A stretch of 63,988 nucleotides of DNA, counting the filler, from Sluysia triapertura (taxonomy: Eukaryota): the NCBI GenBank assembly GCA_046118255.1. It is 4 parts of 4 records of this genome, joined end to end, with 100 filler letters (N's around TTAATTAATTAA, not from the genome) between each part and the next. Parts side by side here need not be neighbours in the genome. Positions count along the whole stretch, not along the records: positions 1 to 19,882 come from JBJNIA010045459.1; 3 more parts are not named here. One strand, given 5' to 3'. This document shows, piece by piece, positions 1,620 through 54,089 of this stretch. Below the pieces are notes generated by a model. That model was not told where the DNA came from. It saw only the letters and a program-made list of their open reading frames with translations, and made no database searches. A program made the translations under genes and the position numbers. How positions within the stretch are numbered: position 1 is the first letter of the stretch; the number at the start of each line of letters is the position of its first letter.

Positions 1620-2107
1620 ATTACATCAAAAATATATATTGAATCCAATTTTTTCAGTGTATGCCTTCTGACCATGTTTAAGATTTCAACACCTGAAATA
1701 AAATTATAGATAATAAAGTTTTGTTAGAAAATCTGTAATTTTTTTACTTCGCTTGTCTCATCATCGTGGTTTTGGCATAGTTGTTTGTTCTTCAGTACGA
1801 TTTGCGCATTAATTGATTGGGTGTTGAGCGAGAGTAGCAGTTGTTCCAATCTGGTGTTGTGTGACGTTGCCGAATCGTCATAAGATATTGAATCTTCGAG
1901 TTGTTCGATATTGTCAGCAAGACTACAAGTAATTCCATGTTTTAAACACAATCCATTGAGGTCGGCTTTGTAAGTACACATCATAATATAAAAATAGTTT
2001 TGTTGAGGTAAATTATGAAACTGTTGATTAACAGTTCTGCTATTATATGCTTATGCATGTCTGCCTTCTTTTTAAGATCATAAAATAGTTTTAATGCTGT
2101 AGCTCTG
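1620..2107 (-). pseudogene. Unidentified coding-like fragment with splice-acceptor-like sites and a frameshift
   Basis: ORF 1724..1984 has protein-like composition. An upstream frame reads RATALKLFYDLKKKADMHKH. Acceptor-like aaacag (about 2106) and tttcag (about 1695) on the minus strand. Family not recognised. Confidence 0.3.
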
Positions 2108-2299: not shown

Positions 2300-2545
2300 T
2301 TATTGGTTGTCCATTTAATTTTTAGTAATGTAATTTTAGAACAATTAATTTTAGAACAATGTAATCAGAAATGTGTTTTGATTGGTTGTCCAACCAGGAA
2401 TATATAAAATTAATGCAGAATTCATTTTTATTGGACAACCAGTAATAGCGTCATACAAATTGTTTGATAAAGAAGCCGCTATCAGTGGTGACAGTAATTA
2501 AAATGTAGTTTGATGAAGTTGCCACTGATAGTGGTAGTTACTGAA
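2300..2545. promoter_or_regulatory. CCAAT/TGACG/hairpin module at the end of a PLE remnant (candidate pseudo-LTR)
   Basis: ATTGGTTGTCC at about 2302 and 2381, ATTGGACAACC at about 2430, GCGTCA at about 2448, and an 18-nt imperfect inverted repeat (2475-2492 / 2518-2535). Same layout as 13286-13490. Confidence 0.45.
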
Positions 2546-2879
2546 TTGATAGCTTTGCGAAATTAATTGGAAATAAAAATAATAAAAATTAGATGGTGAT
2601 ATTAATAATAATAACAAATTATTATTATTATTATTTTATTATTATTATTATCCTATAAACACAAAGTCTTTATCTTGTAATAGCTAAGACGATCTTTCTT
2701 TTACAATCTTAATTTTCTGAACATGCTAAAAATCAAAGAAAATTAACTATGACTGTAATAATAATAACAACAATGGCATTGTCATTATTATTATTATAAA
2801 TGAATGAAGTGTTGATATTACTTAAAACATGATCTTTCTTTAAATACTTTTTGATTTCTTGACATACTTAAATTTATTT

Positions 2880-3530
2880 AAAACTGAAGATCATTAAGTG
2901 AAATTTGGTTTGAGTTGGTTTTAAATATATAATTGATGTTTCAAGATGCGATTGTAGTTCTAATGCTATGCAGTAATGTGTAGAACGTTTAAATGAATTT
3001 TTTAAATGCCGATTAATGTTCTGGCTGAAGATAATGTTTGGATATTAGGAGATTGTGACCATAAGATACATTGAGAAGAGTGTGGTTTAGTGAATGTGAA
3101 AAATATAAATTATAGTCTAACTTTTAGTATGTTCAAAAGGTGATTGTGATTTATTCCCTTGTTATTTTTAAGTGATATTGTCTCTTGTGCTGTAAGGGAT
3201 TAAATTATAACGAATGATGAATTTAAAATGTTTGAATTGATTCGAAGGTGTCGGATAGATAATTTCGAATGTGGTTATAGTTTGATTATTTTGAATGTCG
3301 AGTAAAATATTTTTGATGAATCAGTTAATGTAAATTGATGGTACTGGATTTCGTTGTGGTTTATATGTTATGAGATTGTGGATATGAATTGACTTTAGTG
3401 GATGAATTGTTTTAGTGAATGTAGAGGAGATAAATATGAGAATGTTAAAATGTTAAAGATTATGGTTTTATGTACAATGTGTTGATTTAGTTTAATATTG
3501 TTTTATGTTAATTTTTGAATGTGCATTGTA
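2880..3530 (-). mobile_element. Penelope-like element remnant (RT thumb plus GIY-YIG C-terminus)
   Basis: Minus-strand fragments HKTIIFNILTFSYLSPLHSLKQFIH*SQFISTIS (PLE RT thumb-like), SARTL, LNVLH and HLETSIIYLKP (PLE GIY-YIG-like). Heavily decayed. Confidence 0.5.
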
Positions 3531-3819
3531 GATTTTGATTGTGTATTTGATTTTGTTATATTATGAAGGAAAGATTTTTATAAAATTTAATAATAGTGAA
3601 AGGTTGACCACCATAATCACCCTTTCAAAACTCTCTTGGACTGACTTTATTATCATAATATTGCTTACAAGATACCTGATAGAACTTTACTTTAGTTTAA
3701 CGTTGTTCCATGTTTTGTTCAATCTTTCCTTCATTATTTAAAGATAAATTTCTTCTCTCTAAGTATTTTCTTATATCTGCTATCATAATTAAACCCATAA
3801 GTAATGTACTTTATCGATG

Positions 3820-4210
3820 ACACATTAAATGAAACCACATTTCTATCGTAATTTCTTAAACTATATTGCAATATGCAAATAAACAAGGTGCAATAAACCC
3901 TCGTCCCGATAATTCTGATGATAGTTAGGATACGCAGTTAACATTTATATTAAATCTTTCAACCAAATCATTGCTTTCTGAATGATAAGCCGATTTTGTT
4001 ATTTTATTAATGCGAAAAGAATTGCATACTTCTACATTATTTCATAATGCAATTAATAACTTGATCTAAAAATGATTTCTTCTATAAAATTATTTTCTGT
4101 CCTAGTGACTTTAGGTCTTGAATTGTTTTTTCAGGCCATTTTGTAAAATAATCCAAAAATACTAAAATATATTTATTTCCTTTTACAGTTTTAGGCATCA
4201 TCCACAGCTG
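3820..4210 (-). mobile_element. Ty3/Gypsy integrase core (rve) remnant
   Basis: Minus strand: MPKTVKGNKYILVFLDYFTKWPE ... FIEEIIFR ... EVCNSFRINKITKSAYHSESNDLVERFN ... APCLFAY. These are typical Gypsy integrase motifs, with frameshifts. Confidence 0.8.
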
Positions 4211-5309
4211 AAAATAAATATTTTTAAAGTGATTTAAGGATTATAAAAGATTTCAAAATGATTGTAGAATGTTATAATGGTATTTTAAATGATTTTAGAT
4301 GGTGATGATGATAAACTAATGTCATAAATTAGGAAACGACTGTTTACGAATTAACAAACTGCAAGATCTCGACCTACTAATTTCTTAAGTATATCATACT
4401 TTGTTCCTCATCTTCTTTGTAAACATAAAACATGTATTAGGTCATAACCACAATAAGCACACTTTTTATCACAAGAAAACAATTTATGCAACTATACTTT
4501 AAACATCTGATTACTAAAGTGCACCAAGAACTCATTTCAAAACTTTCATCGATAAAGAAATAATTATTCGCGCATTTAAAATATTTTGAAAAATAAGAAG
4601 TCTAAAATAATTACCAAAGATGATCTATTCTTTTTGACTAAGATAATGATGGGGATACTGAAAAATAAAAGTAAAAAATCAAAACACACGAAATACCAAA
4701 ATTTAAACAATAATAATAATAAAAAGCAGACTTGTTTCTAAAATTTTTAATAATTTCTAAAATGTAGATATTTTATTTAATTAATTTAATAATATTAAAA
4801 TTAGTATTAAAAATTTTATATCTTTTTGAAGAATTGAAGTTGACAATGTTCAGAAAAAAAAAGTAAAGATTTACGAAATTAAATGATACAGAATATAATT
4901 TGTAAGCAACTGCATGTTTTTTAAAACATCTGAAGACAACTGCAATTATTCAAAGGAGTTATCGATTGTTTATCACAACAAGCTTGCCAGTCATCTCAAT
5001 TTTTGTCCTTGATTTCTAGATTTTTTACTTCACTACTTATCGTAACTCTTTAAAGTTCTTACTATCTTTAAACATGCATTACAATCAAATTAGAATGCAA
5101 CTACAAACCCGGATATCTAGTTTTATAAAATAAAATAATAAACATGACATCACAATAATTTAATTAATTATTATTTCCCATTACTTCTAAATGTTATTTT
5201 TAATATTATTTATAAAATTAAATAAGTTGTAAATACTAAAATCAAACTTTATTGAGCCTTCTTTGAAAATAGTTGTCATACAATCCTTCATAATAATTAG
5301 AACTAGCTG

Positions 5310-11030: not shown

Positions 11031-11489
11031 GGTATAACTTATTTTAAACAATTTACTAAACAATATATCAGTTAATTATGACAAATTTTACAGTCAAACA
11101 CGTAAAACAATTAATTTCGACTGTGTTTCAATAAAATAAAAAACGTAAAATTTGAACCTAATTTACCATACTTGAAAGCATTATTGAAAGCACAAAAATC
11201 TCGTAAAATCACAATTTTAATATCATTTCTTACATTTTTAATTGATGATTTAATTATATGTTGATGCAAATAAATGTTAATAAATCTAAAAAGAAACAAA
11301 CAGTATTGAATCATATAAAAATCATTTAAAAAAGTAAATTCTAAATTCTAAGACAAGTAATTTACAAACAAAATGGTAGTTTTATTGGTGAAAATTACCA
11401 ATTGTGGTATTACTTGAAGGTGAATTAATAAGTCAATTAATAAGTCTAGTTTACCTAATTTAAATTTCAGTATAGAAACATTATTGTAA

Positions 11490-12060
11490 TGAAGGATCAA
11501 AAACCCAGTTCGTTACACCAGAGTTAAAAAGCAAGCAAGCATGTGAAAAAAACAAAGAATGGTTGAGAAATCAGTTGGTGTACTTATTTAACAAACTAAT
11601 GAGACATATTTGCAACACGTAAATACAAAATAAAAAGACCTAATGAATTATGATAAGCTGATTTGATGGAAATGCTTCCATATTCAAAAATTAATAATGG
11701 TTACAAACAAATTTAAATTGCCTTGATGTTTTTGGCATTTACAAGAACAGTATCAGTTAAAAAAGCGTGGTAAAGATGTGAATGAAGCATTATCGACATT
11801 AAATAAAACGACTAAATTTTCAAACTGATTTATATAAAGAGTTTTACAATAAAGATGTGGAAAACATTAACAAAATATGAATTTAACAAACACTCTGTTT
11901 AGTCATTACAAGGCAGCATTAGTTGAACAATTTAATTATACCATAAGAGAAAGATAAAAAATAAAGTTTACAAAACAAGATAATAAAAAATGGATTGTTT
12001 TACCTAATATAAATGATGCATGTAATCACATTAAATACCGAAGACTTGATGTCGTATATC
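11490..12060 (+). mobile_element. Polinton/Maverick retroviral-like integrase, decayed
   Basis: KEWLRNQLVY ... ADLMEMLPYSKINNGYK ... LDVF ... FQTDLYKEFYNKDV ... KAALVEQFNYTIR ... KFTKQDNKKWI. This is the Polinton c-integrase pattern (WQADL.DM, QTD.GKEFYN, KASIVERFNRT). Stops and frameshifts. Confidence 0.85.
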
Positions 12061-12599
12061 TATAAATATTAATTCAATTAACTTTATGGAAATGTGACAT
12101 CAATGTATTTTAATTTAAATTAAATATTTAAATTTATTTTTAAAGACTATAAAACTAAGATCGACATCAAATTTTTTTGAAGGCTGCGAACATTTTGCAT
12201 ACTTGATACTGATATCATTAGTTTGTTTGATCCTAAAATAAAAAACATCACAATAAGATCGTTCTGGTTGAAATTCGTGGCAAGTTTCATTTACATTTTC
12301 AATTAGTTTTCGTGTAGAATCGATATTCGAAATCTCTTCGGCCACCGAACATCAAGGTAGAATTACCTGCAAAATGTTTAATTCCATTAGTTTTCTGCAA
12401 CATCTTGTCAAATCTCTCAATAACCAGTGTTGATATGTTTGAATTGGCAAGCTCTGTTTGATTATCAACTAAATACTTTTTATCTGACTTGATTTATTTA
12501 TGGGCATGTAGTACACTCCTTTAGATGAAGTTGATTCAACGATATTTTATGATTGCCAGCTCTTTTAAATGTTTTTTTATCGTCACCCAATTAATCATA

Positions 12600-13140
12600 T
12601 TAATTGAATCTAATTGTTGAGCATTAATTTCTATAGATCTTATGATAGAATTATTGGATTGGATAACTAAATTATTCCAATTTATGACATAACCAGAAAT
12701 ACAGAGTTTCTTAACATTTACAAAGAATACGTTGCCTTTAACTGTGCCAACATAAAGCTAAGTAAGCACGGATAAGCACCTTTAACTTGCAAACTTTATA
12801 CAAGTTCCAAAGGTTTCGTCTGATAATTCCATTGGTGAATTGTTTCATCATTATACGACGTTAAAAATGAACCTTGATTGATTAAAATTATAATTTGAAT
12901 AATTTCACATTTTGAAGGTTGTTGGAAATGGTAATCAACTCCAGGTCGACCGAATATTCGACAAGTACCAATTATTAATAATGGTTCATGAGGGAAACCA
13001 TGCTGAACAATCTTTCTAAATTTAAAATGGTCTGATTTAAGAGTTTTTTCAATTTCTCATTTCTGACTTGATGATATCGAACTTATATTCCGTACTCTGG
13101 TACCATCTTTTTAGATTTTGAAGCATTGAATGATTTGAAA
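12600..13140 (-). pseudogene. STXBP5: Intronless tomosyn (syntaxin-binding protein 5, Lgl family) N-terminal pseudogene
   Basis: EIEKTLKSDHFKFRKIVQHGFPHEP-LLIIGT-CRIFGRPGVDYHFQQPSKCEIIQIIILINQGSFLTSYNDETIHQWNYQTKPLELV*SL ... LYVGTVKGNVFFVNVKKLCISGYVINWN is colinear with the tomosyn N-terminus (ETLQSEHF..TVRHGFP, LFGRPGV, LINEGAL, LYVGTERGN, SGYVIMWN). It carries stops, a frameshift and deletions. More eroded sequence may continue to about 12120. Confidence 0.85.
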
Positions 13141-13285
13141 TTTTTTTATAAATAAACAAATAAAAAGAATCTTAAGCGTATAAATTCAGTTGATTCGGTT
13201 TTTTGTAATATAAAATTAAGATTTTCAATTAATATGAATTTATAATTGTTATTTTTAGTAATCACTTTGTACCATTATTAATGTC

Positions 13286-13490
13286 GATTGGACTTCCAAT
13301 TTACTAACTGCTAACATATAATAGCGTTGATTGGACGTCCAATCAAGTACATCAAAAGTTAGACAGAAACACTGAAAGAGAAATTGTAAATGCGTCAACA
13401 CAAATGACGTAGTACTTAGTAACTGTCATCAGTCGACAGTTCATACAGTATGTTGATATGTATTAAATTAAAATTGTCGACTGATGACAA
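13286..13490. promoter_or_regulatory. CCAAT/TGACG/hairpin module at the end of a PLE remnant (candidate pseudo-LTR)
   Basis: GATTGGACTTCCAAT (about 13286), perfect palindrome GATTGGACGTCCAATC (about 13329), TGCGTCA and TGACGT (13391-13410), and a perfect 15-bp inverted repeat TGTCATCAGTCGACA (13424-13438 / 13475-13489). Confidence 0.5.
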
Positions 13491-13699
13491 ACTGTAATTT
13501 GAATTAGTAATTAAATATAGCATAAAAATACTAATAATTTATGAAGGTAAAGCTACTTAGTTAATTAATAATAATTATAATAAAATAGTGAATAAAATCA
13601 AATAATAATATTCGAAATAAATTGCATAAATTCTTTTAATTTCTTTGGTACATAAACTTTCTTTCTTTGTATTCTTTCATAATATATAAAATCAAATGA

Positions 13700-14100
13700 A
13701 CTTTTATTTGTATTAAAATGTTTATGATGGTCTTGAAGTGCGTGTTAAATGGTTTTCCCAGATGTTAATGATTAATTGTGAAGGATTGGGAACTTGAAAT
13801 GTTTTGGTAAAATTTCAACATTTTCTATGATAATTCAAGATGTAAATTATGATTCTATTGTTGTAGAATATTGAGATAAAATTGTTTTAAATGAGATTTG
13901 AAACGTGCATTAATGGTACGAATGATGTTAAGGTGTTTAAAATTGAAAATAGAATATAAAATTAAAATAAATAAAATAAAATTAAAAATAGAATGTAGAA
14001 TATAAAATGTTAATAATTGAGATCTTACGGATGAAATGATTATTTTGAATTTTTTAAGTTGAAAAGGTTGACCACCACAGGAGTTATTTTTGCTAATCAC
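13700..14100 (-). mobile_element. Penelope-like element GIY-YIG C-terminal remnant
   Basis: Minus strand: NSCGGQPFQLKKF, IRTINARFKSHLK, NHNL, then frameshifted ENVEILPK...L..*SL. This resembles the PLE endonuclease pattern R.L..RFKEH / NVEIL / LESL. Confidence 0.55.
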
Positions 14101-15039
14101 TATGTAAAATATTACCTATATTGCAATCAGATGAAAATAAATGAGAATAATATTATTGCTCATTATACATAATTCATCAACATAAACAAAGAATTTGATT
14201 TGATGAATTTGAGTTAATTCTCCAAATCGAGCTTGTCGCTCATATCTTGCTTCTTCCGACTATTATCAGCATCGGTGAATGGCTGATGTTTATAAAGAAT
14301 GTGACCTTCAATAATTGTTGTGAAGAACTTAAACAGTATTAAGCTGTTAGTAAGATGATAGATCACATTTTCACTTAAATGTTTTTCGAAAATTATGCAA
14401 AACTTTTGTGGCAACTTTACATTATATGTTTGTCACACACGTCACTAACTTTGTTAATTTATGTCAATAACTGTGTTTTGACTAATTTTATAAAACAATA
14501 AATCAATAATACATATTAATTTATTTGTATAGTTTAATAATATTTATTGGATCTTTGGATAATTATATTAATAATTGGACAGTTAAATAATATTTCTACA
14601 TTTGGATAATTGTTAGTAATTTTATATTTGATTTTAAATTTTATTTTAAATTTTATATTAAAATAAATTTGAAAAATTGACTAACATTAAACATTTGTTT
14701 TAATAAATTAAAATGAAATAAGTAAACAGGGTCAAAAAAAACCATATAAAAGCATGTAACTTTACAATTCTTTCACTTTACAATTTTTGCATATAATTCT
14801 TGTACATCTAAACAAGTTGAAAAAGTGAAAATATTGGAAATTCATTACAGAACTTCGTATTTATTTGACAAATGACCCCTGAAATAAGAAAAAAATTTAA
14901 ATTGCTTTTGTTTTACAGGAAATTGCAATTTACCAGCATTTTCAGCTTAATACATTCTCTTATTACTTTACTAATTTTTAGATTTAGTAGGTATATTTTG
15001 CTTCTAATTTGTATGCCTGTTATTTATTTAGAACAATAT

Positions 15040-16210
15040 ATTGAATGTTTTGTAACTTAATGTCTGCTCTGCACTCTGTATTTGGCGATGCGAGTGAACT
15101 TCCTCACAATGTACTGCCAACAAATCTTCAAGTTGCACAGCATTTCTTGCATATAAAAAAAGAAAGAATGATTCAAACAAAGACAAATACAGAGCTGTGT
15201 CAGATGCTGTTATCAGTCTGCGGAACAAAGCTTCCATTCCAACGATGCATTACCGATCTGTAATCAAACGTGTGGAAGCAATGATTTCAACAGGTTCAGA
15301 ACTGTCTCGTTCTAAATCAAGTTCAACACGTCAGTCTACCTTTCTAGCCACTTTGGACTCATTGTTTGATATAGCTGCATGTAAGTGCAGTATGTCTTAT
15401 GACAATTCTACAAAACAAGTAAGCGTATCTTGTCATTGTCCTAGAAATTTGAAAGTTCCACCAGATGAAATGTTTTTATGTGATCAAAGAAACTCGCAAA
15501 ATGTTTATTGCAAATATGGACTTTCAAGCAACAACCAGATTCAGAAGCGCTTACAACGGAAAACTAAAGAAAAATCGAGATGTAAAATATCAAAATTTTC
15601 AGAGGCTGAGAGTAACTTAAATCTTAGTGAAGAACAATCTAGTAACAGTTGTGCAAGTGATCAAAGTGTTGTAGAGGAGAGCGATGACGAGGTACTTCAT
15701 GATAGTGATGATAAATACATCATAGTAGTGATGATGTAGCTGAAAGTCAGATGCGAATATCCCTTCCAAATTTTGCAAAAGAAGCAGACAGAGCTGCAGC
15801 ATCCCTAGCAACAGCAGTACTTATCGATGTTGGATTCATAACTAAGCAGAATCAGAGCTTTGTGATAGACAAGAATAAAGTACATTGTGAGAGGTTGAAG
15901 TTAAGAAAGGTTTTGCAATGTGATATGAGACAGTCACCAAATGTTATCACAGGTATTTACTTTGATGGTAGACGAAACACAACTTTGGTCAAAGCAAACA
16001 GAAATGCAAGTGGTATGGTGACACTACTGTTGAAGATGATTATGTTTTGGTGAAGAACCAGGCAGTAGCTATCTTACACATGTGATGCCTTCATCAGGCA
16101 AAAATATTGATATTGCTACCAGTATTGCAACTGTAATTAGAGAGCAAGATACAAGTGATAGTATCTTAGCAATAGTCTGTGACAATACAAATGCAAATGT
16201 TGGCAGTAAA
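15040..16210 (+). mobile_element. DNA transposon transposase pseudogene, Sola2-like, 3'-truncated
   Basis: Overlapping frameshifted ORFs: LPHNVLPTNLQV, LFDIAACKC..CHCPRNLKVP..FLCDQR, LPNFAKEADR, VIDKNKV, GIYFDGRRNTTL, YVLV-EPGSSYLTHVMPSSG and LAIVCDNTNANVG. GC is higher than the flanks. The superfamily assignment is from memory. Confidence 0.75.
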
Positions 16211-18969
16211 GTACGTACCTATATTCTGTGTGTAATTATCATTGCTTGACTGTTTATATTTGCAAACAATATTGATTTACGTTAGGTGTGTCTTATTATT
16301 TGATAAGTCTGCTTTGGTTGTCAATACCATTAAAGTGAGTATTTACAAGTGTCCAGAAATAATTTCTTTGTAATTTTCTTTCATTTCACATGCAAACGCA
16401 AAGTTTTCCTTTTAAAAGTTTTATTTTCAATTCACCCTAATATATTTTCAACCCACCCAAAAAAATATAAACACATCAAAAATAATTCTAAACGCGGCAT
16501 TTATTTACCAAATGTTAAACCCACGAAAACTAATGATATTGATTAGTATTAAAAATCACTTGTGTATATGCTTATAATTATTGCTTAAATATTGATCTCG
16601 AAATAGTTAATTTTATTTTGAAAATTTAGATATTATTTTAACGGATTTGATGGATTATTAATTGTGGAGATTGTAATCGTAATAACGGAAATGAATGGAA
16701 TATGCACATTCAATATGTAATGTCCCACGAATATTTAGGGAAAGAAAAATTTTGATAAATATTATCATTGTTAATAAATATAATCAAAGATGATATTAAA
16801 TATGGAACAGCATAATGAAAAATAAGTAAACAATATAATTGTTGATTCTATTGGAAAAATATTTTTTCCAGAATATGTGCTTTAAAAGACCCAAATAAAG
16901 AGTAAAGCCAAAATTCAGAAATTATATTCGTGTGAAATTGTGTGTGTATGTGACATTGTTTTTATTTGTTAGTGTATTCTGACACAACTTATTACGTAGG
17001 TTGCGATGAAATGGTGCACTAGATCTCATTTTTCTTGTTTGAGACCATTTTAAGTGGAATAAGTCAAGGGCTATTTTTGGATTGATCGAAAAATAGTTGA
17101 GAAATTCGGAGTAATGTCATGTACTATCCGACATTAAAACAGACAGTTCTAAGTATGATAAAATGTAGCAAATAATGTAGCAACTACTTTTATTATGTAA
17201 ACATGATCATACTTAACATGCTTCGATAGCTTTAGAACTGCAAATAACTTTAAAACATACTGTCTAAAATATAAACTTTATTTAAAACATCATTAAATGT
17301 TAAAATACAATTTATTTAATTTTTTTAATAAAATTAATATGTAAATAAAAACTGCAGTTAAATTCTTAATTTTAATTTTCCCACCGAGGATCCTTAAAAC
17401 ACAAGAAGCAATAAACGTGTGAATATCTATTTAACAAAAGTGGATGTAAAACATTGTTAGAAACAAACCTTATTAAAACACTAATGCATTCAATAATTAA
17501 TTCTACAAATACAGATGAAGATAATATTATAACTAGTAGTGGAATATTATTACCGTAAATAATTGGAACAATTTAACTGCAATAATTGTAATATCATTTA
17601 ATTTTAAATAAACAAAAGATGCGCGTAGAATCAATAGGATTATGAAAGTATGGAATATTACTTATAACGAACATAGTGAGACGACTAATGTAAATCATTA
17701 TATTGGAATTTGTGTTGAAGATTGTTGTGAAATAGTGTTAGTTAAATAATGAAGTACGATGGCGTAGGCTCACCACTATGATCAGAATTATAAATGGATA
17801 AGCAATGGTCAGGAATGTCAAATGATCAAAATAAATTTATTTAAGATGTAAATGAAAATTTAGAAAAATATTAGAATTTTAAAGTGATTTATGAATTTAT
17901 ATCTATTTTAATTATATGAATGTTTGAATTATGATACAAATTAATAAAATAAAGTAAAATCTTAATGATTAAATAAGAAAACTAATTGCTAATTCTCTTA
18001 ACAAACATTAAAAATATTATATATAAAATATCACGTGAAAATATTATATAAATCTAATTATACTAAAAATTTAAACTGTATTTCATTGTCTATAATATGA
18101 ATTTATTTAATATTATGTCATATGGGAAAAATAATGGATCAACAAATCATAACAATTAAATTTCATTCTAAAATTATAATATTAAGCAATAGACATTGTT
18201 TCTCACATTAATTAATTATTGTTCCATGATATTTATTACACTAAATGTTAGCATTTTTATAAGTTTGGTTTCTTGTATTGATGCTAGTTCTCAAAAATAC
18301 TAAATAAATCTATTTACAAACTTTGGCTATGCATGTTACAGCAATTGCTCAATTGGGAAGTCATGTATTTTTAGGGCCTCATTTTATTTTAGTATCATAT
18401 ATTTTCTACTATTTTATGGAAAGCTTCTTTATTTTAAGATATCCTGAATAATTTATGACCAATGAGTGATAATGATTCTTAAAAATTTGGAAAACTTTGA
18501 AATAAGAAAGATCAATATATTGATCTTTATTAATATACTGATTTCACAGAAGACACAAAACTATGATGACTTTCTTTTTTAAGAAATTTAGTTACATTAA
18601 GTCTATTGTATTTGATAATTTTCAATTATTAATCGTTAGCTGATATTTATGTTTATTTATACAGTTAGATTTGATTTTTTTTCAACGGATTTTTAAGAAG
18701 CATTAATTGTATTTAAATCATGGTTTTAATTTTTAATTGCGTAAAATATTTTTTAAAATTCTTATAATTTTAATTTCATTTTCTATCAGATAGATTATTG
18801 GTTCAAATATAATTTTATTTTTATTGTATTGATATTTTCACATGTTTTATTTTATGTAATTTTTATATTATTAGGTTTGAAAGATTATTCTTTATGGAAA
18901 AATGAGAAATCTCGAAATATATTTAAAGAGTATATGTTTAACTTTTTATTCCATTCATGTAAACAAACT

Positions 18970-31408: not shown

Positions 31409-33020
31409 TTAATCACACAAATGGTATATAACATATATGGGCGTAAGGGTATTTATTTGTTTTTCATGCTTGAGTTTTAAAATCTTATCTTTACTCTTAT
31501 TATGCAATGATTTAATATTGTGATCATTATGTACTGGTTTGTTGTTACAAGTTATGTGCTTAAGGCACTTAACAATTTTTAAATTTAAATTTCGAAAATA
31601 TAACTCAACATAGAACGTGAAAATTTTATTAATAACATTCCTAAATATATCTACCATTATTTTATTATTAATATTGTAATGTACGAACACTGTAACCAAA
31701 AGCGAACCAGGTTCTCGATCCCAAGTTCCAACCGTCTCGTTATCAAACTCGTGAATGATACTATAGCTAATCCTAACATTCTCGATACAACATGGTGATA
31801 AAAATTCACCTTTAATATCTTTTAGTTTGATATGACATAAAATATCTTTAACATCTTTTAGTTTGATGTAACATAAAATATCTTTAACATCTTTTAGTTT
31901 AATGTAACATAAAATATCTTTAACATCTTTTAGTTTAATGTAACATAAAATATCTTTAACATCTTTTAGTTTGATGTAACATAAAGTATCTTTAATATCT
32001 TTTAATATAGAATTTACAAATAAACATAACACGTATTTGACATGACTTAAATCGCTGTATAGAAATGAACAAAAAATATCTTCATCACTCTTCAACTTTC
32101 AACGTTCTTACATGATTATCAGATGAAAATATAATATTCATGTACAGTTTACTAACAGTTGAAAATAGTTATGACAATGACGGTAGCTGTAGTAACGAAC
32201 CTATTAACTGAATAAATTCTAAAATATTTCTCACTGTCGGAATATTCGTTATACAATAAAATGCGAACTTTGTACTAGTCTGTGTATTTTTGTTGTCAAT
32301 ATAGGGTATTCGAGTTCGGATAATGGGTATGAATGGTTATTGACTCTGTTCGAAAGTAAAATTTTAAGAACTTTTTTGTGTTTAAAAACATCATTTGAGA
32401 TTTCGACACATACATGTCGAATTTTTAATTAATATTACTGGATAATAGATTGAGTTTTTATTTATTGGATTGTTGAGGACGAAATAAATCATTGAGCCTT
32501 TTATCTTTTTAAAAGTTTTCATATTCATACATATTTTTATTAACTAAGAATTGATTAAATATAACTAGACTAATAGTTATTAACATATTCAATAATTTAA
32601 GAAATTTGTTACTAAAATTTAATAATTCGAAAACTGATTTTTTGTAGGCCAACATTTTCTCGACTGCATCACTGGGCATATCGTCAAATTCAGGTCTTGA
32701 ACATAATTCTAAATAAGATACATGGTTAAAGAAATGATAAAGATAGAAAGAATAAAATTTTACTATTACTATCTTCTTTAAGTAATAACAACCATCTGTA
32801 TTTTCCACTAGGTCTGCGACTAAAATTTGAAAACATAATTGGAATTGGTTAAGAAGTTGTGTCATTCTTATCTCCATTCCATTAGACAATTTAGGGATGA
32901 CTTTACATATCTTTGAATAGATGGATGTTGTTGATGGTTAATTTTGTTAAATGGCCGCGAAATTCCATTGGGGATATTGACGTCATCTTTTGAATTCGAG
33001 TACCAAACGTACTTTGACAT
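31409..33020 (-). pseudogene. Degenerate, apparently intronless MED25-like paralogue (VWA-like plus ACID-like segments)
   Basis: Colinear similarity to the MED25 exons in this window: DVNI..FN vs DVII..FN; YSFYLYHFFNHV vs YTSLYSLYFFNHV; EKMLAYK vs EKIDSFK; KIRHV vs RIRHI; IIFSSD vs MLFSGD; SFL..LFVN vs SFL..HYVN. Several frameshifts and stops. Confidence 0.45.
31811..32003 (-). repeat. In-frame 36-nt tandem repeat, about 5.3 copies (KDVKDILCYIKL)
   Basis: Near-identical units visible in the DNA and in ORF 31409..32095. Confidence 0.95.
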
Positions 33021-44284: not shown

Positions 44285-44820
44285 TTAAATAATTGTATAT
44301 CACAATTTTAATCTATATCATTTTTTTAATTTTCTCAATATTACGTGCATTAAAGCGAAATAAAATCCAAGATCACTTCAATTTTATCGTTAAAAAGTAT
44401 GACTACGAAATGCGAGAGAATTGTAAGGTTCAAGCATCATGTAATGATTTTTATTGCTAAATTTAGTAAATATTTAGTAAACAATATCTTCAACAAATTT
44501 TGATTTAAATGAAATTTGAAAAAGTAGATTAAAACCGTTGGGAAAAAATTTTAGTCGAATCACATCGACAATTTTTCCGCCTGATTATTTTAAGTTATTT
44601 TACTTTTTCAGTTTTTTGCTCCCTAATTTTTAAAACCTGCTAAGTTGTTCATTTGCATGAATAAGATCAACTTAAATCTAGTCTTTGTAACCTTTGATGG
44701 ATCCGGTGTAACGAAGAATTAAGTATATTAATGTCTGTTGGATAAAAGTACGTAGTACAACTATTATTGTAGTAATATAATGGTATTACAAAAAAACATT
44801 AATAATCAAATAAATCATAC

Positions 44821-45212
44821 CAATACTCCTTTATTAACATCTTTACGACCAGAAGATGTAGTCCGAGCATCAATTCTAGGTAAAGTGATGGCCAAATTCT
44901 CAGCAGCTACTCTAATTTTTTCTTTTTCTGATTCTGATAAAACTGCATTTGGCAATAAACTAACTGGAATACCTATTCCTGTTGTTGTTGGAGTCATATT
45001 AGGTGTGCCAGGTCCATTATGAGGCTTAGAAATAATATTTGAAGGTGCTAGATCAAGCAATGGTTTCAATCGGCTGGAATTTGTTATAAAAGCTGACATT
45101 GCAGCTGCAGTTGCAACCGTGCAACTATTAGTGGCTGTATTAGCATTGGTATTGATCGGTGTAGATCCAGAACCAGGAAATAGAGTATTATTTAAAAATC
45201 CCATTAAACTGG
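44821..45212 (-). CDS. NAB: NAB exon (low-complexity linker and start of NCD2)
   Basis: ORF 44815..45204 with acceptor tctaatttag and phase-0 donor gtatga. It joins in frame to 35737 across an intron of about 9.1 kb, giving AAENLAITLPR..RKDVNKGVL|NVLLMDKDDPERR, as expected for NCD2. Confidence 0.85.
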
Positions 45213-45518
45213 CTAAATTAGAAATAGTGTAAGTAATATGTAAATATAGTGTAAGACATCTTTTAATACAAAATAAATAATTATTTTAAAATTGAGAATA
45301 TTCCAAAAAATGAATCTTACACAAATATTAAAACAATTAAAATCTAAAACCACAAAAGTAACACTCGAACACTCAAAACAATTGTAATGTTTACTGGATA
45401 AATTTTGTAGTAATTGTAGTAATTATATTATTATTAGCAAAAATATGACAATAAGATAATAACAAATAATAAAATAATGATAACGATAGTGTAATAATAT
45501 CGGCTAATAACATCTAAC

Positions 45519-50334: not shown

Positions 50335-52079
50335 GATTAATAAAGGTATTGAAAAATTTTATGATATTTTATCCTTTGATATAATAAAAAGAATAATATT
50401 GTTTCGAATAACTGTTAAAAAAATAGTAATTGTTTGAAATAATGAGGCATTTAATGGTACAGATTCTATTACACAAAAGTAGTATAAATGAGAAACTCAA
50501 CAAAAAACGTAGAAAATTCTATCAAAATTTTATAGATCTAATTCGACGAACAGATATTACTAGTGTCAAATTTTCGATACAGCCTATTCTAACGAGAAAA
50601 CCGCATTCATATCTCATTTGACAATATTTCCATGATAAAATATACTTAAAATCTTCTCATAATGTATGTCCAGATATTAATAGCCTGTCAAAATCTTAAC
50701 AAATTCATTTCAGTAACTATTTAAAGATTTATTAAATAAATAAAATCCTTATTTTTTACTATTACATAGCTAGAGTTGATCGTAATATTGACTGGAGTCT
50801 TTTTTTTATAAAAATATTAATTACAGCGATTTTTCTGCATTCATATAAAACACACTGAAAATTATTGCTCATTTTACACCTAATTTTAAATAGAAGTTTA
50901 AACTCAAGAGAAGTATAAAATTAATAATAAAATCATCTAAAATCTTATTCAGCATTTGAATTCTCATTTTAAGTAGAGATAAAATCATTTTAAATCGAGG
51001 TTGAAAATCAGTTAAATTAAACTAATCAAGTTTGAACATTTATTTTGAGTTATAATTGCTATAAGACATATTTAAATCATGGTAAGTATGGTTAAGAGAA
51101 TTATAAACTAAAACCATTTTTTTGACTTCCATTTTTCATTTCAAGATTATTAGTTTGCAAAATCCTATGGATCACGTTTTTTATTTAATTTAATTTTTTC
51201 CTTATTAATAAAAGTTCATTTAATTGAAATTTTTGCAATTTGATTATGGTATTTTAATAAAACAAAAAAAATTTTCAGGTATACCTGCATTGAGTATAAG
51301 ATGCATGCTCTAGATGGATCCAGAATTTAGTACTTTCATTTAGCTGTAAGATAAAACAAAATGAAAATTCATCAACATTTTCAAGTAGTGATCAAAATTT
51401 ATCTCCTATAAACCGAGTGTTAGTTTTAAATTCGTCTACTTTGGACTTTAAATTCATCTTTATTTATGACTTAAATATGTACGAAATTTGAACTTATCTT
51501 TTAAGATAATAATTAATCAAATAATGGTAATAATTTAATAATAATTAATAATTCCAAAAAAACAAATATTTTAAGAAAATGATACACAATAATATTTTAG
51601 TAAAGTTTTGCTATGTTGTATGATATCACACCACCAGTTGATCAGAAGTAATATAAATGTGACTGAGTCAGCATATTGCAGAATTATTAAAAGAAAATTT
51701 TTGTTAAAAAACAAAATTAGGATATTATTTTATGAATTGTCATTTATAATTCATAATCAATTGAGCCAATTGATTCAGCACAATTGATTTTAGAATTTGA
51801 AAACCAAGGAAGATAAATGAAAAGACCAAAGCAACCCATATGAAGCTCTTGAAAAGAAAAAATTGAATTTCGTTAATAAAAATGCAATAAATACTTTATT
51901 GAGAGAATAACGTAAAATTTTATCATATCACGAATTATGCACAGCTATTTTTATGTTTGTGACCATTTTATTGTGTCTACACTGAATATATAAAAGAATT
52001 TTAAGTTACGGAGTAATTAATATTGAGAGCTTCGCGTATTTTGAAGGAATGAGCAATTCGAAAGTCGTAATGGTTGTGA

Positions 52080-52330
52080 CCTGCAAAAATTAAGGATGAT
52101 TGTGTATTTACTGATTTTGAGTCAATTTGTGACTGCTGAAATTGTACGTTGTGTAGATGTTGTAAAATTGTAAGTTTGTTGTTGAGTGTAGTGAATGATA
52201 AAAATTCAGTGTGCTAAAATGTTAAAGGATTGATATAAGCTAAGTTTGAATTAGTGAAAGTTAAAATTGTAAGCTAAGTACTGAGCCACCACAGTACTAT
52301 TGAATGTATTTATTGAATGTAAATAGCACT
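52080..52330 (-). mobile_element. Penelope-like element fragment
   Basis: Shares the ctgtggtgg (CGG) block and strand-biased composition with the 14060-14090 and 55220-55240 copies. Confidence 0.35.
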
Positions 52331-53040: not shown

Positions 53041-53149
53041 GAATGAGATGTTAAATAAAGATAATAATAATTTAATGATGGATGATTCAATTATTATTAG
53101 AGTTATTATGGAATAAGTGTTCGGGACCTTTTGTTGACTGGTAATAGCA

Positions 53150-54085
53150 ATGAAAAATAAGGCGAGGAACTTTCCATTGGAAACTGTGGCCTTTAGCTGT
53201 TCAAAGGGGAGCAGGAGAGGAGTGTTTGTAGTATTTCAGCGTGGTTAGAGTTTCAATTTCAAATATAGGATCAATTGTAAAGTAATCCGTAAACATTGCT
53301 AGGTATGTAATCGTAGATTGGTCGAAGGGTGGAATTGTTCCATTGCTGGCAAAAGGGATCAACCTTAGGGTTGGTCGGAGTAGTGGCTGTTACAGTGATG
53401 TTTTGGGACGCTTTTGTTTGGTTTTCTTGAAAGACTTTGTCCATATTAGGTTTTGAGGGTTCATTGTGTTGAGCGAAGATATTGGGGAATTTTGGTGGCT
53501 TTAGCAATCGAATGACCTCGCAGAAATCGTTGAATCGGGACATTTTTTGTACTGTTTTGCAATGTCGCATATAAATGTTCCGCACTCTGTTGCGCCAACT
53601 TGATTTGGGTATTGTATGGCTTTATATTGATGCTCCTGTGTTTTCGGTATACACTAAGTGACTTACGGGTAGTGACGATGTTGCTGATGTAATGGCCAAG
53701 ATATATGAGGACCAATGATTGTGTATGTGTTGGCATTCTTGTTAAAGATCAATAGTATCCAGTGGTGATCAATATTTATACGTCAGTTTGGCAAGTTTGG
53801 ATAGTGAAAAGTTGTCAAGAATGCCTGTTTATCGTTGCAGATTGTGAAATTCGATGTGAAGCAATCAATCACCACTGATTCCGGATCGACGATATAGTTG
53901 TTAAAATAGGCCATTATAGCACAACCTGTTGGTCAATCTGACTCATGGATAGAGTCGAGATCGGCTGTTGTCACTTCGTCGGGAAGATTATTCGGGTTTG
54001 TATGACTCAGGAGATGTTTTACTACCTGGGCGTGGGAAGAGAAGATAAAGTCAGATGTGTACTTGATGATGGCTACCTTTCCACT
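53150..54085 (-). mobile_element. Ty3/Gypsy reverse transcriptase remnant
   Basis: Minus strand, in order: AIMAYFNNYIV (eroded YxDD), LIYLGHYIS, IRLLKPP and PFEQLKA (RT-RNase H connection). GC is higher than the flanks. Confidence 0.65.
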
Positions 54086-54089
54086 GAGT

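Follow-up and report, generated by a model that had tools for sequence, protein, structure and literature searches.

The locus described here lies on the minus strand of a window of 63,988 nucleotides from Sluysia triapertura, which comprises joined parts of the genome, is AT-rich (~25% GC) and contains assembly gaps. It carries a dead fragment of tomosyn, and no whole gene, which is likely to derive from the cDNA of coding exons 1-5, judging by homologue gene calls that serve as a proxy for intron positions. Three parts follow one another: a high-copy leader of ~0.85 kb (leader A), which holds a hairpin and a CCAAT module, then the tomosyn fragment, and then a multi-copy tail (Table 1). The fragment and the tail share a reading frame, sister contigs were found, and a second leader (leader B) stands before a different frame. 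Our favoured reading, held at about even odds, takes the tomosyn piece as the cargo of a non-autonomous leader–cargo–tail mobile cassette; this reading is based on the apparent loss of introns from the cargo, the position of leader B before another frame, the frame common to cargo and tail, the copies of the cargo and the intron in the tail. A second repeated unit adjoins the fragment on its 3' side, so that the proposed cassette has three parts and is not a two-part fusion.

Table 1. Features of the tomosyn locus and of leader copy B (positions count along the window)
Feature	Position	Strand	Remarks
Upstream copy of 24-nt direct repeat	14083..14106	-	21/24 identical; TSD or element-encoded terminal redundancy; brackets the leader
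Conserved start of leader A	14017..14077	-	matches copy B in 15/15 bases, then at 67% overall
G-poor, high-copy leader body	13520..14016	-	holds the words called 'GIY-YIG-like' in the earlier note (13920, 13758); no profile match
Hairpin/inverted repeat	13423..13490	.	15-bp perfect arms; z -5.1, 0/200 shuffles
Inverted TGACG pair	13393..13409	.	TGACG words also in leader B
Pair of CCAAT palindromes at a spacing of 43 nt, putative promoter role	13287..13346	.	20-bp perfect palindrome at 13327-13346
Downstream copy of 24-nt direct repeat	13248..13271	-	brackets the leader
Cargo: decayed, intron-lacking N-terminal tomosyn fragment, ~residues 1-180, probably coding exons 1-5	12661..13126	-	ends at a conserved gene-call break
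Multi-copy tail exon, protein family without match	12259..12660	-	X1 contigs; in tomosyn frame after sister-contig indel lengths
3' remnant of ~56-nt intron, donor half missing here	12233..12258	-	donor half in two sister contigs
Multi-copy post-intron sequence, likely last exon/3' end of tail	12120..12232	-	5-18 contigs at 12190 and 12218
Leader copy B, same start/body/hairpin/TGACG/CCAAT order as A	2300..3613	-	62-67% identical over aligned parts
Frame behind leader B, Unkempt-like CCCH finger	1727..2050	-	Pfam PF25427, E 1.1e-5, below curated cut-off

The homology to tomosyn covers model positions 16-178 of 1103, and hence the N-terminal ~180 codons, or about a sixth of the protein. The frame from 13056 to 12799 matches LLGL2 (E 1.4e-7) and has 91 matching representative proteins. 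A scan of the whole window with a profile from 32 homologues gave just two matches, namely, model 17-133 (13092-12781) and model 149-178 (12757-12668), with iE values of 1e-26 and 3e-10. The top representative matches either have a SNARE domain or go by the name of syntaxin-binding protein 5; since Synaptobrevin, the SNARE domain, is present in six of the ten best matches scanned, we assign the fragment to tomosyn (STXBP5) and not to Lgl. Four of the five best matches were looked up, and two of these four are flatworm proteins; flatworm matches come from Taenia, Echinostoma, Dicrocoelium, Cichlidogyrus, Schistosoma and Paragonimus, several of them lower-ranked. On these grounds, the source of the DNA is likely to be a flatworm. 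The parent of the piece was found neither among the representative matches nor in a word-index protein search, which counts as weak evidence.

An earlier note on this DNA, which dealt with the span 12120..14100, had described an uninterrupted tomosyn frame. The homology is real and the strand correct, but the copy occupies only 13126-12661 and is dead, and the stretch from 12660 to 12120 is different: it was considered as further tomosyn and ruled out, as the profile match ends at ~12661, the likeness fading at model 176-181 (12676-12661). The frame itself is interrupted by stops at 13059, 12798 and 12760 and by three deletions, of 10 codons, of 4 codons and, with a frameshift, at 12781-12758, there being at least one frameshift in all; what survives of the claim is the lack of an intron-sized insert at three junctions. 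A 22-nt GT..AG stretch at the frameshift was also considered as a mini-intron; its removal fails to restore the frame, and the stretch reads tomosyn-like by eye. The same note had the tomosyn frame begin near its N-terminus within about 150 nt of the module. An ATG does lie at 13126, ~160 nt downstream of the second CCAAT; by eye, the short frame that starts there looks like flatworm N-termini, but it is not the frame of the segment 13056-12799.

As a proxy for intron positions, we used the starts and ends of short homologue gene calls on the profile, which are truncated gene calls and not DNA. Among 57 profile matches in such calls, 23 start at model 76 and 4 at 41, whereas 18 end at 136-137, 4 at 102 and 4 at 181; the flatworm-labelled calls break at 41, 102, 136 and 181. 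These break positions agree with what we take to be the exon ends of the vertebrate gene. The window copy is contiguous across model 42|43, 75|76 and 102|103, with no intron-sized insert, and there is no intron-sized sequence at the fourth junction (136), which is masked by the deletion with frameshift. Moreover, the similarity ends at 178-181, at the last gene-call break. It is because the copy is gap-free across the gene-call breaks and ends at the last of them that we consider a cDNA origin likely. The poly(A) tail and TSD of LINE-made retrocopies were not found at the tomosyn copy, which is 3'-truncated at ~codon 181 and runs straight into the frame of the tail.

Within the tail, two sister contigs have 40 extra letters between 12257 and 12259, which read GTAAGT on the minus strand; the GT donor in these extra letters and the AG of the window at 12234-12233 together delimit an intron of ~56 nt. 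As the tail keeps this intron in the sister contigs, it is unspliced, in contrast to the probably spliced cargo. When all four indels listed in 12259-12757 are filled by length, the tomosyn frame has one stop in 174 codons. Left unedited, it has five, and the two alternative frames have 16 and 18 stops. The open frame of the tail alone (shuffle P 0.0002) needs all three frameshifting indels, and these variants are drawn from different contigs, with no single open copy among them; additionally, two sister contigs encode tyrosine where the last stop of the tail stands here. By chance, a fusion of cargo and tail would be in frame in 1 of 3 cases. No match to the tail protein was found in Pfam, NCBIfam or PDB, and by-eye likenesses to a PIF1/Helitron helicase or a CCCH finger found no match either.

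The evidence on sister copies comes from contigs of one public run (X1) at 80% likeness; the run contains 73% of the sampled words, is possibly the window's own sample and is not independent support. The variants listed comprise 40 of 324 substitutions and 12 of 59 indels, and depth, which was binned at 100 nt, does not equal copy number; conserved genes may be filtered out. From 14123 onwards, the depth is 16-20, corresponding to the single-copy level. Over 13416-14122, it is 240-1670, and each variant listed at 13816-14030 is carried by 20-29 contigs; for the greater part of the tomosyn piece, the depth is 42-55 (1-3 contigs, with 6-8 at 12857-12859), and over 12100-12700, it is 125-550 (mostly 5-18 contigs). 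With the leader in 20-29 contigs versus 1-8 for the cargo, the two are therefore not always together. One sister contig of 184 nt lies wholly on 12895-13060 and shows 16 substitutions and 18 gap letters; with so few gap letters, it too has no intron at either of the first two junctions. Five of the nine differences listed at 12931-13009 are silent (P 0.075). Two others among the nine, H-to-Y and G-to-R, hit residues that are kept in 30 of 32 tomosyns, which suggests that these contigs are likely to be further decayed copies, and not the parent; if so, the cargo itself has been amplified, as we consider likely from the contig sequences.

The CCAAT/TGACG/hairpin module, as described in the earlier note, is real. 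Its ATTGG..CCAAT palindromes lie at 13330-13343 and 13287-13300, and the changes in the hairpin arms between leaders A and B are compensated. The 24-nt direct repeat that brackets the leader has a score that is reached by 5 of 4892 random tile pairs. No second repeat of pLTR length was found in 11500-17500. A metagenome search with the hairpin pattern returned 121 loci, none of them like leader A, together with one 32-nt match to leader B; in viral contigs, 0 of 39 pattern matches were confirmed.

Leader B has its own hairpin (2479-2531), which folds with z -5.5. With composition-aware ranking of tiles, its start comes 1st of 2436 (z 7-8) and its module 1st of 1512 (z 6-7, reciprocal); the body comes 1st of 946 (z 5.6) at the looser setting only, and is absent from the top tiles at the stricter one. 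The start, module and body matches of the two leaders are collinear. With plain scoring, leader B is 7th of 1512 tiles; with strict scoring, it falls outside the top 10; and the nhmmer comparison of A with B is not significant (E 0.7-3.9). No shared sequence was found upstream of the two leaders, and alignment of the CCCH-finger frame behind leader B with tomosyn and with the tail of A revealed no similarity. Behind this frame, at 1692-1746 on the minus strand, there is by eye a possible GT-AG intron, with a size near that of the tail intron at A. A Gypsy integrase-like fossil, seen by eye at 3620-4260 on the minus strand and without a Pfam match, runs directly into leader B; such sequence is not seen upstream of leader A. 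A further G-poor, leader-like start is located at 51980-52290 on the minus strand, where the frame resembles a PLE C-terminus by eye; there is no hairpin or CCAAT module behind it and no significant match, and a word-index protein search with its frame 52004-52213 found nothing (weak evidence). A protein alignment of the three G-poor frames gave no conserved column.

The surroundings hold several other features. On the plus strand at 11400-12060, tail to tail with the proposed cassette, there is by eye a frameshifted, Maverick/Ginger-type integrase-like fossil, with high depth at 11800-11900 and no Pfam match, and decayed DNA-transposase-like frames without a Pfam match occupy 14900-16600 on the same strand. 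We take the latter label from a cysteine-rich motif in these frames. A Gypsy-type pol fossil lies at 53060-55000 on the plus strand (rve, E 5e-4; RT_RNaseH, E 9e-4). A strong GC-rich hairpin at 58640-58735 (z -7.5 on both strands) is downstream of a 255-aa open frame (56521-57285) that matches Med25 VWA with E 8e-7. On the minus strand, an open frame of 229 aa at 31412-32098 contains a 36-nt unit repeated in tandem (5.4 copies with 95% matches), and the end of an open frame at 44818-45285 resembles what is presumably a Nab corepressor domain, without a Pfam match.

The earlier note had seen a PLE GIY-YIG-like tail upstream of the module and had explained the locus as a pLTR-host cDNA fusion made by a PLE RT. 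The first claim was not confirmed: in the leader, no GIY-YIG match was found in Pfam (six frames), NCBIfam, PHROGs or PDB, libraries that are without a PLE-specific profile, and the likeness consists of by-eye words only. From the second, the probable cDNA origin and the adjoining repeated, promoter-like module can be retained; the PLE end and the PLE RT are unsupported. The corresponding explanation, in which the leader would be a PLE 3' end (endonuclease remnant plus pLTR), with the 24-nt repeat as the PLE 'tail', and a PLE RT would have joined it to the tomosyn cDNA, is in our view improbable. It could draw on one minus-strand leader frame with 6 stops in 188 codons (P 0.025 versus block shuffles), which holds a loosened version of what we take to be the GIY-YIG word (a post hoc observation, with two occurrences across the window and 0.15% of shuffles); however, the word [YF][IV]G.T, again as we assume it to read, is absent from the leader, the sister-contig indels leave this frame closed, and the A-B differences by codon position (17/22/20) show no third-position bias. 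A word-index protein search of the leader frame found nothing (weak evidence), and, upstream of the leader, where a PLE reverse transcriptase would be expected, none of the three minus frames of 14100-14700 has a Pfam match. Furthermore, no second pLTR was found behind the cargo. Neither strand of copy A has a hammerhead core, as CUGAUGA occurs there without a following GAAA; copy B has CUGAUAG on both hairpin arms and just one hammerhead core, without stem II; and no Rfam hammerhead family matches at E up to 10. In the accessible text of the sources, hammerhead motifs are placed in the pLTRs of canonical PLEs (PMC4209133), Naiads are described as being without them (PMC8557442), and retrozymes are linked to pLTRs in a preprint whose available portion does not address cargo (bioRxiv 10.64898/2026.07.22.740005). 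What is described there of PLEs, namely, a tail of 30-40 bp, palindromes at the pLTR ends and the retention of introns (PMC8557442, PMC11167929, PMC3846280), with the tail and internal initiation treated in the consulted part of PMC11167929, would suit this explanation, and the intron retained in the tail exon would be PLE-like. Against it, the host gene in the one published case of PLE mobilisation kept its introns and had pLTRs on both sides (PMC3846280). PLE ancestry of the leader as such is possible, if doubtful. Hardly probable is the wider proposal that the leader is a domesticated PLE 3' end, and that genome-wide non-autonomous cassettes repeatedly fuse exon-bounded pieces of spliced mRNA in frame with an intron-keeping tail and spread the resulting promoter-equipped chimeras, amounting to PLE-driven exon shuffling in a flatworm; a PLE origin, if true, would mean that PLEs mobilise spliced fragments in addition to whole genes with their introns.

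The leader may alternatively be no carrier at all: a tomosyn-tail chimeric retrocopy would have arisen first, and a high-copy repeat of ~810 nt would later have inserted ~120 nt upstream of its start with a 24-nt TSD. We regard such independent events as rather unlikely. The direct repeat, rarely equalled by random pairs, lies 5 nt from the start common to both leaders and follows the last CCAAT by 15 nt. It fits a separate leader insertion with a TSD, which counts against the cassette; yet the depth stays high through the bin 14022-14122, so that the upstream repeat fits membership of the family, and it drops to the single-copy level right after, indicating, with the coarseness of 100-nt bins, that nothing upstream is common to the cargo copies. 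Leader B, which is oriented alike and stands at a comparable distance from a frame, also speaks against independent events, whereas the excess of leader over cargo sister contigs and a neighbourhood full of unrelated mobile-element fossils are in their favour, and the lack of similarity between tail A and the CCCH-finger frame is a further point against the cassette. Very unlikely, in our judgement, is a history with no RNA step, in which the parent was intron-poor over its first 180 codons and was captured as DNA (Helitron/Pack-type capture or segmental duplication). The breaks in the flatworm gene calls and the end of the homology at the break at 181 both oppose it, as does the failure of the by-eye PIF1 likeness of the tail to yield a match; on its side are a cluster of 13 homologue rows that is unbroken over model 36/37-145, which means that intron-poor lineages exist, and the retention of the tail intron, as would be expected from copying at the DNA level. 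Many homologue gene calls also span model 102.

For the leader–cargo–tail cassette, we would envisage transcription from the CCAAT module and an RT acting in trans, for which an LTR/Gypsy element would be the most plausible source and a PLE a possible one. The RT would switch from the unspliced cassette RNA to a spliced tomosyn mRNA and back again, and its product would be a promoter-equipped chimeric gene, with a spliced cargo and an unspliced tail, which would then have been copied further and have decayed. Repeated DNA lies on both sides of the cargo; no LTR pair, primer-binding site, polypurine tract or gag/pol homology was identified around it, and neither the far end of the cassette nor the mobilising enzyme was found. 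Many similar cassettes probably exist in the genome; with the tomosyn copy itself dead, it is the family that is of value. The locus bears on the questions of which elements generate retrocopies outside mammals and of how these acquire a promoter and a reading frame: a spliced cargo, an in-frame unspliced tail, a reusable promoter-like leader and sister copies are together the anatomy that would be expected of a route to new chimeric genes.

A literature search with partial coverage found no paper on such cassettes in flatworms. Several known systems share parts of the arrangement. With respect to tomosyn/STXBP5 itself, a member of the Lgl family, the likeness is to the first WD40 blades, with up to 55% identity to homologues; the full protein has LLGL, Lgl_C and SNARE parts, whereas the fragment, disabled and only about a sixth of the length, is without all three. 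Helitron and Pack-MULE capture, as far as described in the available text of PMC6431247, shares a multi-copy non-coding hairpin end, captured host fragments and chimeric frames, but the cargo here is without introns, and no Helitron or TIR termini or transposase have been shown. LTR-mediated chimeric retrocopies, according to the accessible part of PMC5131818, also have a spliced partial mRNA between element-derived sequences, secondary amplification and the potential for exon shuffling; the present locus differs in that the 3' partner is an intron-bearing frame and no LTR-element parts were identified. Finally, the Penelope mobilisation in Adineta vaga, as given in the part of PMC3846280 that was accessible, shares the position of a host gene next to a palindrome-bearing terminal repeat and the retention of introns, here in the tail only. 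In that case, however, a whole gene was moved with its introns kept, pLTRs on both sides and an 8-bp TSD, whereas the tomosyn cargo is both spliced and truncated and has a single leader at its 5' side.
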